Shown here piece after piece: positions 1 to 4,392 of a stretch of 4,392 nt of DNA. Made by a program: the position numbers and the translations under genes. The notes beneath the pieces are model-generated. The model saw only the letters and a list, made by a program, of their open reading frames with translations, was not told the DNA's origin and made no database searches. The stretch is from IMG/VR virus record IMGVR_UViG_648276671_000011, one strand, 5' to 3'. Each line of letters starts with the position of its first letter. Position 1 is the first letter of the stretch. Source of the stretch: a virus. Lineage: Duplodnaviria; Heunggongvirae; Uroviricota; Caudoviricetes.

Positions 1-149
1 AATCGAAATCGACACCGAAAAATAAAACATCAAGTCATATCAATATATTGCATTGGTGGTGATGACGAATAAAAATGCAAAAACTAGCCTTTTTCCGCGA
101 TGCTCCCGCCCCGTGGCAGGGCACCCCACAAGGAGGACCCGCCATCACT

Positions 150-491
150 ATGGAGGCCATGACCATGACCATGACCATGACCATGACCATGACCATGACC
201 ATGACCATGACCGAGACCGAAGCGCTCGGGATAATCCGCAGTATTACCGGAATCAGCCAGCAGGCTGGCGAACAGGAGGCCACGCAGCCGGACAGCGTGA
301 TAGCCGAAAATTACGCGCGTGTTGTTGCTGAGGTGATGCGCCGTGATGGTATTGAGCTTAACGGCGTGGATATGCGCAACATACGAACCAGAGTCCTTGA
401 GTTGCTGGCATACCGTCGCCGTTCTCAACAACGGAGGGAGAGCGCGAAAAGTACTTACCAGTGGAAGAAGCCGGAACGACTGCGGCGGTAA
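150..491 (+). CDS. Hypothetical small protein (113 aa from ATG150; 138 aa if ATG75) with N-terminal (Met-Thr)9 repeat and a basic Arg/Lys-rich C-terminus
   Basis: ORF-track frame 75..491. AGGAGG at 131..136 lies 13 nt upstream of the in-frame ATG at 150. Downstream sequence (...ARVVAEVMRRDGIELNGVDMRNIRTRVLELLAYRRR...) is protein-like. Three other frames also read through the repeat (53..331 +, 35..283 -, 84..431 -), so strand and frame are not certain. I do not recognise the family. Confidence 0.45.
   Translation: MEAMTMTMTMTMTMTMTMTMTETEALGIIRSITGISQQAGEQEATQPDSVIAENYARVVAEVMRRDGIELNGVDMRNIRTRVLELLAYRRRSQQRRESAKSTYQWKKPERLRR
158..211. repeat. Perfect hexanucleotide microsatellite (CATGAC)x9, with one degenerate unit at 212..217
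   Basis: Directly counted: nine identical CATGAC units, 54 bp. Encodes (Met-Thr)n in the frame of the 150..491 ORF. Confidence 0.97.
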
Positions 492-675
492 CTTGCTGAT
501 ATTCCCGATAACGCAAAATTGCGTTGGCTGGTGGGTGAGTTGCAGATTTGCAACTCGACCATGAAACTACGGAAACTACCCGTAGTTTGGGTAGTAAGAG
601 TAACACCCAGATTTTGGGGCTTACTCGCGATACCCAAATAAAGGGTATCGGTGGAAGAAATATCGTTTCTCATAT

Positions 676-714
676 GTAAGTACCGAGGGCGGAATTCCGC
701 CTTCGGTTACTTAT
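676..714. repeat. Long imperfect inverted repeat (about 17 bp stem, one bulge) centred on the perfect 14-bp palindrome GGCGGAATTCCGCC (688..701)
   Basis: Hand base-pairing: 688..701 is its own reverse complement; flanks 676..687 pair with 702..714 with one bulged T and two G-T pairs. Confidence 0.6.
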
Positions 715-732
715 TGTGCTCATGCACAGGGA

Positions 733-793
733 GGGGCGGGTCAAAATCTCTGTACCCTGACGTCTTCAGGACTGCCCGCCCCATCGATTTTTT
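733..793 (+). terminator. Candidate intrinsic terminator: GC-rich stem GGGGCGGG (733..740) / CCCGCCCC (775..782) with a large loop, then T6 (788..793)
   Basis: 8-bp G/C stem enclosing a ~34-nt loop that has its own small hairpin (CCTGA..TCAGG); T-run starts 5 nt after the stem. The loop is larger than a classic terminator, so this is tentative. Confidence 0.3.
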
Positions 794-1048
794 ATACCCG
801 CGAAAAATGAAAAACGCTTCACGCTGGTGGGCCTGATGCCGATATGGGGAGCCGCATACCGGAGAATATCCACCAGCACGGCAACAGCAGAATAGCCCCG
901 ACACAGAAAAACCACGAATATGGGGTTTTTGTTATGGCATGGTCATGATGACCGCCCCTGCTCTGAATGGTGGAAATCACCACGCAGATCATCCACCAGC
1001 TTCATGACGGATAGCCGGAAAATGATAATGATTAAAGCGTGTTGATCT

Positions 1049-1075
1049 TTGTTCGCGGTTGTTCGATATTGTTCG
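1049..1075. repeat. Three copies of TTGTTCG at exact 10-bp spacing (1049, 1059, 1069)
   Basis: Direct reading: tTTGTTCGcgg TTGTTCGata TTGTTCGtga. One helical turn between copies, as in phased binding-site arrays. Confidence 0.6.
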
Positions 1076-1081
1076 TGAAGC

Positions 1082-1105
1082 GGTGTAGTTAATGGTGTAG
1101 TTAAT
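1082..1105. repeat. Perfect 12-bp tandem duplication GGTGTAGTTAAT x2
   Basis: 1082..1093 is identical to 1094..1105. Confidence 0.85.
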
Positions 1106-1115
1106 ATCACTGTTT

Positions 1116-1143
1116 TTGACGGGCTTGTTATTTGCAACATAAT
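1116..1143 (+). promoter_or_regulatory. Candidate sigma70 promoter upstream of clpS: -35 TTGACG (1116..1121), 16-bp spacer, -10 CATAAT (1138..1143)
   Basis: Hexamers read by eye; would give a ~130-nt 5' UTR before clpS. An inverted repeat TGATAG-N4-CTATCA (1178..1193) lies inside that leader. Not validated. Confidence 0.3.
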
Positions 1144-1278
1144 GAAAAATAAAGACTAATTAACTAAATGATATAAATGATAGTTATCTATCATGTGGAG
1201 TAGATTGGTCAGGCAAATAAGCTCTTGTCAGCGGCAGGGCGTTCTGCCGATAACCGTAACCGAAGATGATAACTGACA

Positions 1279-1599
1279 ATGGGTAAAACGAACGACTGGC
1301 TGGACTTTGATCAACTGGCGGAAGAAAAAGTTCGCGACGCGCTAAAACCGCCATCTATGTATAAAGTGATATTAGTCAATGATGATTACACTCCGATGGA
1401 GTTTGTTATTGACGTGTTACAAAAATTCTTTTCTTATGATGTAGAACGTGCAACGCAATTGATGCTCGCTGTTCACTACCAGGGGAAGGCCATTTGCGGA
1501 GTCTTTATCGCCGAGGTTGCAGAAACCAAAGTGGCGATGGTGAACAAGTACGCGAGGGAGAATGAGCATCCATTGCTGTGTACGCTAGAAAAAGCCTGA
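1279..1599 (+). CDS. clpS: ClpS, ATP-dependent Clp protease adaptor (N-degron recognition), 106 aa
   Basis: Translation [51 protein letters not shown]... matches enterobacterial ClpS as I remember it. 30-nt gap to clpA, typical of the clpS-clpA operon. Confidence 0.95.
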
Positions 1600-1629: not shown

Positions 1630-3906
1630 ATGCTCAATCAAGAACTGGAACTCAGTTTAAATATGGCTTTCGCCAGAGCGCGCGAGCACCGTCATGAGTT
1701 TATGACCGTCGAGCACTTGTTACTGGCGCTGCTCAGTAACCCATCTGCCCGGGAGGCGCTGGAAGCGTGTTCTGTGGATTTGGTTGCGCTCCGTCAGGAA
1801 CTGGAAGCCTTTATTGAACAAACCACACCCGTTCTGCCTGCCAGTGAAGAGGAGCGCGACACACAGCCGACGCTGAGTTTTCAGCGTGTACTGCAACGTG
1901 CGGTCTTCCATGTCCAGTCCTCCGGTCGCAATGAGGTTACCGGTGCAAACGTTCTGGTCGCTATTTTTAGCGAACAGGAGTCGCAGGCGGCATATCTGTT
2001 GCGTAAACATGAAGTCAGCCGTCTCGATGTGGTGAGCTTTATCTCTCATGGCACGCGTAAAGACGAGCCGACACAGTCTTCTGATCCTGGCAGCCAGCCA
2101 AACAGCGAAGAACAAGCTGGTGGGGAGGAACGTATGGAGAATTTCACGACGAACCTGAATCAGCTTGCGCGCGTGGGAGGAATCGACCCACTGATTGGTC
2201 GTGAGAAGGAGCTGGAGCGTGCTATTCAGGTTCTCTGCCGTCGCCGTAAAAACAACCCGCTGCTGGTGGGGGAATCTGGTGTCGGTAAAACCGCGATTGC
2301 GGAAGGTCTTGCCTGGCGAATTGTTCAGGGCGATGTGCCGGAAGTGATGGCTGACTGTACGATTTACTCTCTCGATATCGGTTCTCTGTTAGCGGGCACA
2401 AAATATCGCGGCGACTTTGAAAAACGTTTTAAAGCGTTGCTCAAGCAGCTGGAGCAGGATACTAACAGCATCCTGTTTATTGATGAGATCCACACCATTA
2501 TCGGTGCGGGTGCAGCCTCTGGTGGCCAGGTCGATGCGGCTAACCTGATCAAACCGCTGCTCTCCAGCGGTAAAATTCGCGTAATTGGTTCGACAACCTA
2601 TCAGGAGTTCAGCAACATTTTCGAGAAAGACCGTGCTCTGGCGCGTCGCTTCCAGAAAATTGATATTACTGAACCGTCGATCGAAGAAACTGTTCAAATC
2701 ATCAATGGCCTGAAACCGAAGTATGAAGCGCACCACGACGTGCGTTATACCGCAAAAGCGGTGCGTGCAGCGGTAGAGCTGGCGGTGAAATACATTAACG
2801 ATCGTCATCTGCCGGATAAAGCCATTGACGTTATCGACGAAGCGGGCGCTCGCGCACGCCTGATGCCGGTAAGCAAACGCAAGAAAACCGTTAATGTGGC
2901 GGATATTGAGTCCGTGGTGGCCCGTATTGCGCGCATTCCAGAGAAGAGTGTTTCGCAGAGTGACCGCGATACCCTGAAAAACCTCGGCGATCGCCTGAAA
3001 ATGCTGGTCTTCGGTCAGGATAAAGCCATTGAGGCGCTGACTGAAGCCATTAAGATGGCGCGTGCAGGTTTAGGTCACGAACATAAACCGGTCGGTTCGT
3101 TCCTGTTTGCAGGCCCTACCGGGGTCGGGAAAACAGAGGTGACGGTACAGCTTTCGAAAGCTTTGGGCATTGAGCTTCTGCGCTTTGATATGTCCGAGTA
3201 TATGGAACGCCATACCGTCAGCCGTCTGATTGGTGCGCCTCCGGGATACGTTGGTTTTGATCAGGGCGGTTTGCTGACTGATGCGGTCATCAAGCATCCA
3301 CATGCGGTGCTGCTGCTGGACGAAATCGAGAAAGCGCACCCGGACGTGTTCAATATTCTGTTGCAGGTGATGGACAACGGTACGCTGACCGATAACAACG
3401 GACGCAAAGCGGACTTCCGTAACGTGGTATTGGTGATGACCACCAACGCTGGGGTACGAGAAACTGAGCGTAAATCGATTGGTCTTATCCACCAGGACAA
3501 CAGTACCGATGCGATGGAAGAGATCAAGAAGATCTTTACGCCGGAGTTTCGTAACCGTCTCGACAACATTATCTGGTTCGATCATCTCTCCACCGACGTG
3601 ATCCATCAGGTAGTGGATAAATTCATCGTCGAGTTGCAGGTTCAGTTGGATCAGAAAGGTGTTTCTCTGGAAGTGAGCCAGGAAGCGCGTAACTGGCTGG
3701 CCGAGAAAGGTTACGACCGGGCAATGGGCGCACGTCCGATGGCGCGTGTCATCCAGGACAACCTGAAAAAACCGCTCGCCAACGAACTGTTGTTTGGTTC
3801 GCTGGTGGACGGCGGTCAGGTGACGGTTGCGCTGGATAAAGAGAAAAATGAGCTGACTTATGGATTCCAGAGTGCACAAAAGCACAAGGCGGAAGCAGCG
3901 CATTAA
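1630..3906 (+). CDS. clpA: ClpA, ATP-dependent Clp protease ATP-binding/unfoldase subunit (two AAA+ modules), 758 aa
   Basis: Translation from ATG1630 ([24 protein letters not shown]...) matches E. coli ClpA as recalled. Walker A motifs GESGVGKT and GPTGVGKT are present. GGAGG at 1619..1623 sits 6 nt upstream of ATG1630; the ORF-track start at 1615 is a TTG and is less likely. Confidence 0.97.
2122..2136 (+). promoter_or_regulatory. clpA: Internal ribosome-binding site GGGGAGG (2122..2128) plus in-frame ATG (2134..2136, Met169) for the shorter ClpA65 form
   Basis: SD-like GGGGAGG 5 nt upstream of internal Met169 codon (seen). Internal initiation at Met169 producing a truncated ClpA is established for E. 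coli ClpA. Confidence 0.6.
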
Positions 3907-4118: not shown

Positions 4119-4206
4119 GTTCACTGCCGTACAGGCAGCTTAGAAAGCCAACCGAAAGAAAAACTCGATTTTTATACCGTTCACTGCCGTACAGGCAGAT
4201 AAAATG
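4119..4206 (+). CRISPR. Orphan type I-F mini-array: repeat 1 (4119..4146, GTTCACTGCCGTACAGGCAGCTTAGAAA), 32-bp spacer (4147..4178, GCCAACCGAAAGAAAAACTCGATTTTTATACC), degenerate terminal repeat 2 (4179..4206)
   Basis: 28-bp repeat with the Cas6f-type hairpin core CTGCC-GTACA-GGCAG matches the E. coli/Yersinia I-F repeat consensus from memory. Second copy is identical for 20 nt then degenerates. Spacer length of 32 is typical. No cas genes in the window. Confidence 0.85.
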
Positions 4207-4249: not shown

Positions 4250-4267
4250 TGGCGGTGAGGGGGGATT
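4250..4267 (-). pseudogene. 3'-terminal fragment of a tRNA-Ser(GGA)-like gene (acceptor 3' strand plus part of the T-arm); the rest of the tRNA is not present downstream
   Basis: TGGCGGTGAGGGGGGATT is the reverse complement of ...AATCCCCCCTCACCGCCA, the 3' end of E. coli tRNA-Ser (serW/serX type) as recalled. From 4268 the sequence no longer follows the tRNA, and no complementary acceptor 5' strand (CCTCACC on +) is found in the next 125 nt. Confidence 0.5.
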
Positions 4268-4392
4268 GACTCGCTTCGCTCGCCCTGCGGGCAGCCCACT
4301 CACTGTGTTCGTGGTCTGTCCAACTGGCTGCGCCAGTTGTCGAACCCCGGTCGGGGCTTCTCGATCCCCCCTGGAGTGCAATATGCGAAAAA

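Follow-up and report, generated by a model that had tools for sequence, protein, structure and literature searches.

A PICI end at the cspD-clpS site carries segments resembling the cos regions of two phage families

In E. coli K-12, cspD lies 322 bp from clpS, in agreement with the ∼320 bp given in the initial annotation of this locus. The window, by which we mean the whole 4,392-nucleotide stretch of DNA analyzed here, carries clpS (1279..1599) and clpA (1630..3906) on the plus strand, and the question it raises is what has taken the place of cspD in front of them. The initial annotation stated that no cold-shock-domain ORF exists on either strand of 1..1278. This is borne out: with E. coli CspD as the query, the best tblastn match anywhere in the window had E = 1.7, the positive control, cspD itself in the related locus L001, was recovered at E = 3e-39, and none of the listed window ORFs is CspD-like. 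The further claim, that cspD is absent, does not stand. The complete genomes closest to the window, those of ST361 and F374, retain intact cspD and yljB genes, separated from the attR core by an island and situated ∼10.9 kb upstream of it. We consider it about 90% probable that positions 1..1176 are the right end of an ∼10.8 kb phage-inducible chromosomal island (PICI) of the EcCICFT073/EcCIIHE3034 family, integrated at the cspD-clpS site, and that cspD is displaced, not lost. The junctions, the family identity of the island, the published att site, and the likeness of two segments to phage cos regions, including a cohesive end measured in SfI, are shown directly, and the clpS-clpA operon is the chromosomal flank.

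The island meets the chromosome at an 18-bp attR core, ATGATAGTTATCTATCAT (1177..1194, plus strand), an imperfect palindrome whose first 11 bp are the published core ATGATAGTTAT. In K-12, this 18-mer occurs in single copy (L002 2312..2329), overlapping the yljB stop codon and 84 bp upstream of the clpS start codon. The attL form of the core is ATGATAGTTATtTATCAT (L001 10349..10366), giving an 18-bp att site of ATGATAGTTAT(C/T)TATCAT. With attR, attL, a single K-12 copy, and a published core, the locus has the specific, duplicated att site, not used by prophages, that is typical of PICIs; EcCIIHE3034 and EcCI18098 are catalogued at att “cspD-clpS” with core ATGATAGTTAT (Fillol-Salom et al. 2018, ISME J, Table S1). 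A tRNA scan of the window came back empty; the island is therefore not one that targets a tRNA gene. Beyond the core, the clpS upstream region with its 5′ leader (1195..1278, plus strand) is native and unchanged: inspection by eye shows identity to K-12, and there are 0 differences from ST361 and F374. The ∼1.28 kb of differing content described initially is therefore confined to 1..1176 (1194 including the duplicated core), 1177..1278 being a match to the K-12 clpS upstream region. Between the two origins first proposed, replacement or insertion upstream of a conserved operon, the clean site-specific junction with its duplicated core decides for insertion. A tyrosine integrase would have inserted the island at this core, and cspD and yljB would have been pushed ∼11 kb away, with no deletion, because the island integrated between the end of yljB and clpS.

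The window begins inside the island, such that the integrase and the remaining island were read only in near-identical relatives. In the closest complete genomes the island is present in full with its integrase intact, and the order is integrase…primase…capsid…Nu1-like TerS…window, with cspD and yljB beyond. The islands of ST361, F374, and IHE3034 have the size (∼10–15 kb) and modules of a PICI, namely int, an alpA-type regulator, and primase-replication genes, and have no tail, portal, TerL, or lysis genes. No exact match to the window exists in the complete-genome collection, the best being 99.6%, and neither ST361 nor F374 has any substitution across 1..1278. The island part has 0 substitutions relative to ST361 beside a clpA that differs by 1.9%, which points to recent horizontal spread. 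The visible end would be the packaging and recombination end of the island: it comprises, in order, a minus-strand mEp460-type cos, the last gene with its repeat, a terminator-like hairpin, an SfV-type cos, Chi sites, arm repeats, and attR. The hairpin-rich non-coding stretch noted at the outset is real (492..∼1176) and consists of cos sites and att arm sites of this phage satellite end.

The first cos-like segment (1..144, minus strand) is of the lambda-family, mEp460/Gifsy-2 type. It is 85–87% identical to mEp460 and relatives (∼86% for mEp460), in which the matching 144 bp lie 50–190 bp upstream of the terS start codon. By analogy with lambda, it contains a cosQ-like GGGTCCT (140->134), a cosN-like 12-mer, GGGCGGGAGCAT (111->100), and a cosB-like region (99->1) that runs ∼16 nt past the window start in relatives. 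This is the lambda-family layout, with cosQ ∼30 nt upstream of cosN and its flanks, then cosB, in a segment that lies upstream of terS in phages; the heptamer-to-cosN spacing is 29 nt in the window versus 30 in the lambda-type cos1 of L001. As in lambda, the cosQ heptamer is GGGTCCT, and the flanks of the cosN-like 12-mer, ACG / CGCGG, are conserved. Relative to the lambda ends, 16/22 positions of the 12-mer plus flanks match, the differences falling at 4/12 positions of the 12-mer and 6/22 with flanks. Lambda cosN itself, GGGCGGCGACCT, is absent from 1..1278 at ≤3 mismatches; the segment is of a diverged type, found only through its likeness to mEp460. The linear virion assembly mEp460_4F5 starts CCACGGGGCGGGAGC and ends ...GGGTCCTCCCGGTGGGGTGGCCTG, placing its physical ends inside the cosN-like motif. 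A literature search for measured cohesive ends of mEp460/Ayreon-type phages found none, the Ayreon paper predicting the location only. The segment has the position and orientation of cos2 in EcCICFT073 and EcCIIHE3034, and, unlike its counterpart upstream of terS in mEp460/Gifsy-2-like phages, it points away from the island's terS-like gene.

The second segment (729..812, plus strand) is an SfV/SfI/SfII/ST64B-type cos, HNH dependent and HK97-like. Its 84 bp match the intergenic stretch from HNH to terS in phages such as SfII and ST64B, with 90.5–94% identity to the cos regions of the phages sampled for this figure, SfII and ST64B. A 10-nt cohesive end, TGCCCGCCCC (773..782, plus strand), is flanked by the inverted repeat GGGGCGGG / CCCGCCCC and equals, base for base, the end that was measured for virion DNA of SfI (PMC3636060), so that both this end and the flanking recognition region of an SfV/SfI-type cos are present. 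In the Shigella/Salmonella phages SfI, SfII, SfIV, SfV, and ST64B the site sits between the HNH and terS genes, whereas in the window it lies in a non-coding satellite end, and the satellite encodes neither HNH nor the terS protein of those phages. Related satellites at other att sites carry the SfV-type block in 3/5 sampled cases, each with TGCCAGCCCC in place of TGCCCGCCCC.

The two phage groups package with different machinery: mEp460 with a DUF1441 TerS and a GpA TerL, SfII and ST64B with a Terminase_4 TerS, an HK97-like TerL, and an HNH protein. Judged by these matches, the end of one island appears to combine cos types from two helper-phage families with different terminases. Each in-window cos would be cut by a helper terminase, and the island would thereby be packageable by more than one helper family. 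In relatives, the Nu1-like terS is directly preceded by a perfect lambda cosQ and cosN (GGGTCCT and, from 30 nt further on, GGGCGGCGACCT). In the ST361-type island the gene beside this cos1 is a Phage_Nu1 homolog (PF07471, E = 1e-22), for which a sequence search for structure matches returned none; its comparison with RppA, the mark of Rpp-type packaging redirection, gave only E = 1.4. The TerS-like protein of the island has no meaningful similarity to the mEp460 TerS; its cognate site is therefore some other sequence than the inverted mEp460-type cos.

A broader interpretation, tentative and short of an even chance in our estimation, is that three cos sites would serve three helper packaging systems, that they would be swappable cassettes between satellites, and that Chi would protect the cut ends. 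Its parts would be the lambda-type cos1 with Nu1-like TerS, seen in relatives, and the mEp460/Gifsy-type and SfV/ST64B-type sites of the window. Exchange is suggested by the island already published for this att site, which has other cos types, and by islands elsewhere that share the SfV-type block. Should both in-window sites prove functional, a single satellite could travel on unrelated temperate phages.

Four Chi sites (GCTGGTGG) fall within the 474 bp surrounding the SfV-type cos: one at 527..534 (plus strand), and a cluster in 823..1000 made up of 823..830 (plus strand), 870..877 (minus strand), and 993..1000 (minus strand). Most are so oriented that they would stop RecBCD entering at cos-cut ends and protect linear satellite DNA, the site at 823 being the 1/4 in the wrong orientation for this role. 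The window as a whole has 7 Chi sites versus 0.14 expected; at the K-12 genome density, the excess has a Poisson P of ∼4e-6. The ST361 island has 13 in 10.8 kb. We regard the clustering as a small side observation. The first of the four lies in a conserved satellite non-coding block (492..728, plus strand), 85–92% conserved in satellites at other att sites and absent from EcCIIHE3034. The block also holds an imperfect inverted repeat (577..647, plus strand) and a terminator-like hairpin (682..707, plus strand), which probably ends the packaging operon. An Rfam search of 1..1278 at a permissive threshold gave nothing credible, only mir-598 and sR28 at E 0.3–0.5.

The chief alternative leaves the island in place and holds that both in-window cos-like segments are non-functional recombination relics, or have another role such as termination, with packaging only through the lambda-type cos1 and Nu1-like TerS, both located beyond the window. 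The perfect lambda cosQ/cosN of relatives is consistent with this, as is EcCIIHE3034, which does without either in-window cos type, so that neither is needed in this PICI family. Deletion of cos2 in EcCICFT073 left transfer unreduced, and raised it in one case, and the variant TGCCAGCCCC of 3/5 sampled related satellites points the same way. Against this, the SfV-type block keeps its phage identity over exactly the cos region, including the exact measured cohesive end, and recurs in 3/5 satellites at other att sites. In the mEp460-type block, cosQ, cosN, and cosB keep their arrangement and spacing. ST361 and F374 have both blocks without change, and the SfV-type cos lies between Chi sites of the correct orientation. 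On balance we find relics unlikely, though a serious contender, and consider both segments candidate cos sites of the PICI.

The last gene of the island bears on two weaker alternatives. The repeat-containing ORF of the initial annotation is confirmed, with a longest frame of 75..491 and the hexanucleotide repeat (ATGACC)x9 at 159..212 (plus strand; TRF period 6, 100% matches). The repeat is an expansion of the start codon and the Thr codon of the gene that follows, in 9 copies in the window versus 3 in ST361 and F374. Family members start MTE..., which corresponds to the repeat end. The conserved, satellite-specific 94-aa gene runs from 207 to 491 (plus strand; phrog_1561, E = 2.6e-50), and the repeat may give its product an N-terminal (Met-Thr)n extension; database proteins at ≥98% identity are 122–130 aa long, in 2-aa steps. 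We note this start-codon repeat as a minor observation in its own right. A long-range complement between the repeat and 938..956 was judged coincidental, EcCIIHE3034 keeping 938..956 without any repeat. A Pfam search with the 94-aa protein returned nothing, PHROG 1561 is a family without assigned function, and all 981 homologs are hypothetical or unnamed. AlphaFold models three helices (pLDDT 68), for which Foldseek against the PDB found no match below E = 1.7. This gene family is the last gene in several satellite types, and the protein is 72% identical to the product of the last EcCICFT073 gene. In tblastn against 50,697 phage records it gave one weak match only, the pattern of a PICI-unique gene.

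Essential absence of the last gene from those phage records is difficult to reconcile with the inserted DNA being the end of a defective lambdoid prophage and no satellite. Two segments do match phage genomes, and island proteins are annotated as capsid, decoration, and TerS. However, the phage matches span 144 and 84 bp only, both at cos regions, and the ∼10.8 kb island has an integrase, AlpA-type regulators, a DUF927 primase, and SSB with no tail, portal, TerL, or lysis genes. As element and site are moreover catalogued as a PICI, we consider a prophage origin improbable. The chance that the element is instead a P4-like satellite or a capsid-forming PICI (cf-PICI), and not a classical cos PICI, appears similarly slim. 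The element resembles P4-like elements in having an Icd-like gene, a primase, and regulators of the AlpA type, it resembles cf-PICIs in having a capsid homolog, and the same ORF-plus-cos block ends satellites with a TerL or a protease-capsid fusion. The gene order, however, is that of EcCICFT073, and the matches of the cos segments are to lambdoid and SfV-type phages, with no P4-type cos. The annotations of the ST361, F374, and IHE3034 islands, the basis of this comparison, list none of sid, psu, and delta of P4-like elements and, of the cf-PICI set, no TerL, portal, protease, HNH, or head-tail connector of their own. That 1..1278 came down by vertical descent as the usual sequence upstream of clpS in the source lineage, without any mobile element, is hardly credible: 134 complete genomes have the same window-type end at the same place, but the yljB-clpS junction is uninterrupted in 5058/5426 (93%) complete E. 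coli genomes and most E. coli lack most of 1..1278, the 18-bp core is duplicated with an integrase adjoining attL, and the island has no substitutions relative to ST361 despite the 1.9% difference in clpA.

An attP-derived arm of 31% G+C (1020..1176, plus strand) has motifs that recur on the attL side and at the EcCICFT073 right end. It includes three TTGTTCG repeats 10 bp apart (1049..1075, plus strand) and two GGTGTAGTTAAT repeats (1082..1105, plus strand), all of them putative binding sites for integrase or for an accessory protein. At 1116..1143 (plus strand) the arm also has a promoter-like sequence, TTGACG-16-CATAAT, that faces outward. With the island 84 bp from the clpS start, this promoter-like sequence might make clpS/clpA expression differ between strains with and without the island. 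A promoter scan of the K-12 intergenic region gave no plus-strand candidate, and the literature held nothing usable on a clpS promoter or a yljB transcription start. A mobile element and an insertion site that are both already catalogued account for the missing cspD, with nothing unusual for clpS/clpA or cspD biology. The basic finding is ordinary, both insertion site and island type being published; the mix of cos types at this end is of modest novelty, and its function is a prediction.

Among known systems, the staphylococcal cos SaPIs SaPIbov4 and SaPIbov5 are likewise satellites carrying a copy of a helper cos, and SaPIbov4 has two putative cos sites. They differ in being of unrelated lineage and host, and are not known to carry cos sites from two unrelated terminase families. 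Closer is EcCICFT073, the prototype Gram-negative cos PICI, in which both cos sites work experimentally, and the one element here for which helper-dependent induction, packaging, high-frequency transfer, and helper interference are shown (Fillol-Salom 2018 and 2019). Like the right end of the present island, it has cos1 (plus strand), a packaging-redirecting gene, an inverted cos2 (minus strand), a 93-aa gene, and GGTGTAGTTAAT arm repeats. Unlike it, EcCICFT073 occupies ycfD-phoQ with core GGACATATTT, has RppA (an RppC homolog; PDB 6HLK, E = 5e-31) where the present island family has the Nu1-like TerS, and carries two lambda-type cos sites with no SfV-type cos.

The closest published islands are EcCIIHE3034 and EcCI18098, which share with the window island the site, the core ATGATAGTTAT, a size of 10.5–10.8 kb, the gene order including the Nu1-like TerS, a 93/94-aa last gene, and an att-proximal 360 bp that is ∼98% identical. 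Across 820..1290, EcCIIHE3034 is ∼98% identical to the window, and across the arm stretch 1020..1176 ∼99%. It differs in its inverted cos beside the last gene, which is lambda-type (AGGTCGCCGCCCCGTAAC) where that of the window is mEp460-type. It has no ATGACC repeat, and at the place of 511..820 it has a different, shorter spacer, and so is without the SfV-type cos. Closely related PICIs at a single att site thus differ in the helper cos sites they carry and, if these are functional, satellites would have in the exchange of cos cassettes an easy way to widen or switch helper range and so to move between strains.

The window contains the end of an inserted element, just upstream of clpS (1279..1599) and clpA (1630..3906). 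Of 5426 complete E. coli genomes, just 134 carry most of positions 1..1278; nearly all have only its last ∼100 bp. In ST361, a closely related complete genome, the counterpart of this stretch forms the right-hand end of a block of ∼10.8 kb with yljB on one side and clpS on the other, and F374, the closest complete genome, has the same arrangement. K-12 has a single copy of ATGATAGTTATCTATCAT, which overlaps the stop codon of yljB and lies 84 bp short of the clpS ATG. The window carries the attR copy of ATGATAGTTATCTATCAT at 1177..1194, native sequence begins at 1177 and continues through the rest of the window, and the left junction of occupied genomes reads ATGATAGTTATtTATCAT. The junction is uninterrupted in 5058 of the 5426 genomes, so the site is occupied or otherwise interrupted in ∼7%.

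This insertion accounts for the position of cspD, which in K-12 ends 322 bp upstream of clpS, in agreement with the distance given in the initial annotation, with the small gene yljB in between. Searching the whole window with E. coli CspD (tblastn) gave a best E of 1.7, and a positive control with this query recovered the gene in a related locus (E = 3e-39); the cold-shock gene said to be missing is thus indeed absent from 1..1278. Of the replacement or insertion proposed earlier, the insertion holds and the loss does not: in ST361 and F374 both cspD and yljB are intact beyond the far side of the island, and cspD is displaced, not lost. The repeat-containing open reading frame (ORF) and structured non-coding stretch described upstream of clpS are both real.

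The ST361 island is annotated, in order, with a tyrosine integrase, HTH regulators, an Icd-like protein, a DUF4222 protein, a DUF927 primase, SSB, a major capsid homologue, a head decoration protein, an AlpA-type HTH protein, a “terminase small subunit,” and a 94-aa hypothetical gene. The window shows the packaging and recombination end of such a cos phage-inducible chromosomal island (PICI). Its island part has zero substitutions relative to ST361, next to a clpA that is 1.9% different, which fits recent horizontal spread. The last 60 bp of the island contain a sigma-70-like promoter facing clpS (TTGACG-16-CATAAT, 1116..1143, 10/12 matches), and a promoter scan gave no plus-strand candidate in the K-12 intergenic region, which suggests that the island might alter clpS/clpA transcription.

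Beyond clpA, two type I-F CRISPR repeats (Rfam CRISPR-DR4) lie toward the serW/infA side, the first at 4119..4146 (50.1 bits) and the second, degenerate, at 4179..4206 (29.7 bits), with a single spacer of 32 nt between them; the pair resembles a minimal orphan array. Because the ST361 alignment is lost at 4146, array content varies between strains. An RtT-like element follows on the minus strand (4250..4385; 44.9 bits, just under the gathering score of 45), labeled “RtT sRNA” in several related genomes. The tRNA-Ser gene (serW) that comes next in relatives is past the window end, and a tRNA scan found none in the window.

Two cos segments within the window derive from phage groups with different terminases: mEp460 has a DUF1441 TerS and a GpA-type TerL, and in SfII and ST64B a Terminase_4 TerS is accompanied by an HK97-like TerL and an HNH protein. 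The first segment (1..144, minus strand) is 85–87% identical to DNA 50–190 bp upstream of the terS start in mEp460 and its relatives. It includes the heptamer GGGTCCT, the lambda cosQ sequence, and, 29 nt past it, GGGCGGGAGCAT with flanks ...CCACG and CGCGG.... This motif resembles lambda cosN, which reads ...TTACG GGGCGGCGACCT CGCGG.... The linear virion assembly of mEp460_4F5 starts with CCACGGGGCGGGAGC and ends with ...GGGTCCTCCCGGTGGGGTGGCCTG, placing the physical ends of that phage inside the cosN-like motif. A long ORF call of 138 aa from the ATG at 75 (75..206 stretch) spans the segment, and its first 33 residues match PHROG 35283, phage “hypothetical proteins” over the equivalent cos region that include mEp460 gp59 and the Ayreon “late gene regulator.” ORFs of this type are probably spurious calls on cos DNA.

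The second segment (729..812) shares 90.5–94% identity with the stretch between HNH and terS in SfII, ST64B, and related phages. Positions 773..782 are exactly TGCCCGCCCC, the measured cohesive end of SfI virion DNA; SfII, SfIV, and SfV are reported to have this cos too (PMC3636060, PMC3851460). Satellites at thiM and tRNA-Ile sites also carry this SfV-type block, with a 10-mer that differs by one base. Preceding it is a non-coding block kept among satellites (492..728), with an inverted repeat and, at 682..707, a strong hairpin resembling a terminator. Within the cos block, the window reads AAAA at 742..745, where ST361, F374, and the phages' SfV-type cos read AAA. Besides repeat copy number, this is the sole difference from ST361 and F374 in 1..1278; the extra A sits 28 nt ahead of the cohesive-end sequence and may reflect either an error in sequencing or a true change in length.

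Chi sites (GCTGGTGG) occur about once per 4.6 kb in the genome. Four surround the SfV-type cos within 474 bp, at 527 and 823 (plus strand) and 870 and 993 (minus strand), against an expectation of ∼0.1 at K-12 genome density, and the ST361 island (10.8 kb; 10349..21177 of its locus, L001) has 13, with no RecBCD inhibitor annotated in it. RecBCD recognizes Chi in one orientation only; if the DNA is cut at 773..782, RecBCD entering from the new ends would meet 527, 870, and 993 in that orientation, and 823 in the other. The adjoining AT-rich region (1020..1176, 31% G+C) contains three TTGTTCG with 10-bp spacing and two GGTGTAGTTAAT (1082..1105), motifs found again at the attL end and in EcCICFT073. 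Their simplest interpretation is as arm-type sites to which the integrase or an accessory protein would bind. The tandem GGTGTAGTTAAT lies near both island ends (L001, the ST361 locus, 10486..10509) and in EcCICFT073 (L007 9103..9126), whose att core is a different one. EcCIDI14 is listed with a nearly identical string for its “att site core” (Table S1, PMC6092414); that entry may therefore be an arm motif instead.

The last island gene begins in an (ATGACC)x9 repeat (159..212), located exactly at its start codon. Members of its protein family begin MTE..., so the repeat is an expanded start codon plus Thr codon. There are nine copies in the window against three in ST361 and F374, and near-identical database proteins differ in length by 2-aa steps. 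GGAGG lies just before the repeat (152..156) and would favor initiation within it, giving a variable-length N-terminal (Met-Thr)n tail. The 94-aa protein gene (207..491; PHROG 1561, function unknown) is abundant in E. coli, is the last gene in several satellite types, and is essentially missing from phages in a search of 50,697 phage records; structure prediction and fold search gave no result. Four other satellite loci (L013, L014, L015, and L017) end in this 93/94-aa gene plus the downstream block. Among satellites with this end, that of SMS-3-5, at thiM, has a TerL gene, two at tRNA-Ile carry a gene that fuses protease and capsid, one has a DUF1441 (mEp460-type) TerS immediately upstream, and after one comes a truncated gpA terminase gene of a prophage, so this satellite may lie inside a helper.

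If the island behaves like EcCICFT073, a helper prophage would induce it, which would excise via its own integrase at the core and replicate; concatemers would then be cut at cos by the helper terminase and packaged. In relatives of the island, a Nu1-family TerS homolog is preceded by perfect lambda cosQ and cosN. The main rival explanation is that one or both cos segments in the window are relics. The most economical reading would be that more than one helper family could package the island, with cos modules swapped between satellites. We found no earlier description of the cos-type mix, the Chi clustering, or the start-codon repeat in the literature examined; these are modest additions. The element and site are already published.

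The insertion beside clpS is a new copy of an already catalogued satellite at an already known site. Fillol-Salom et al. (2018) list two PICIs at “cspD-clpS” with core ATGATAGTTAT (Table S1, PMC6092414), EcCIIHE3034 (NC_017628.1 920272-930825, 10.5 kb) and EcCI18098 (10.8 kb). EcCIIHE3034 has the same gene order as the ST361-type island and ∼98% identity to window 820..1290; in its host strain, IHE3034, clpA is annotated as a frameshifted pseudogene (L012 11469..). The prototype, EcCICFT073, is located beside phoQ and shares the right-end layout of cos1, RppA, inverted cos2, 93-aa gene, and then GGTGTAGTTAAT repeats, and the function of both its cos sites has been demonstrated by experiment. 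Its RppA, whose sequence matches that of the RppC crystal structure (E = 5e-31), stands where relatives of the window's island have the Nu1-family TerS homolog. In contrast to the window, both EcCICFT073 and EcCIIHE3034 are without the SfV-type block and have a lambda-type cos2, at equal position and orientation, in the slot that here holds the mEp460-type cos.
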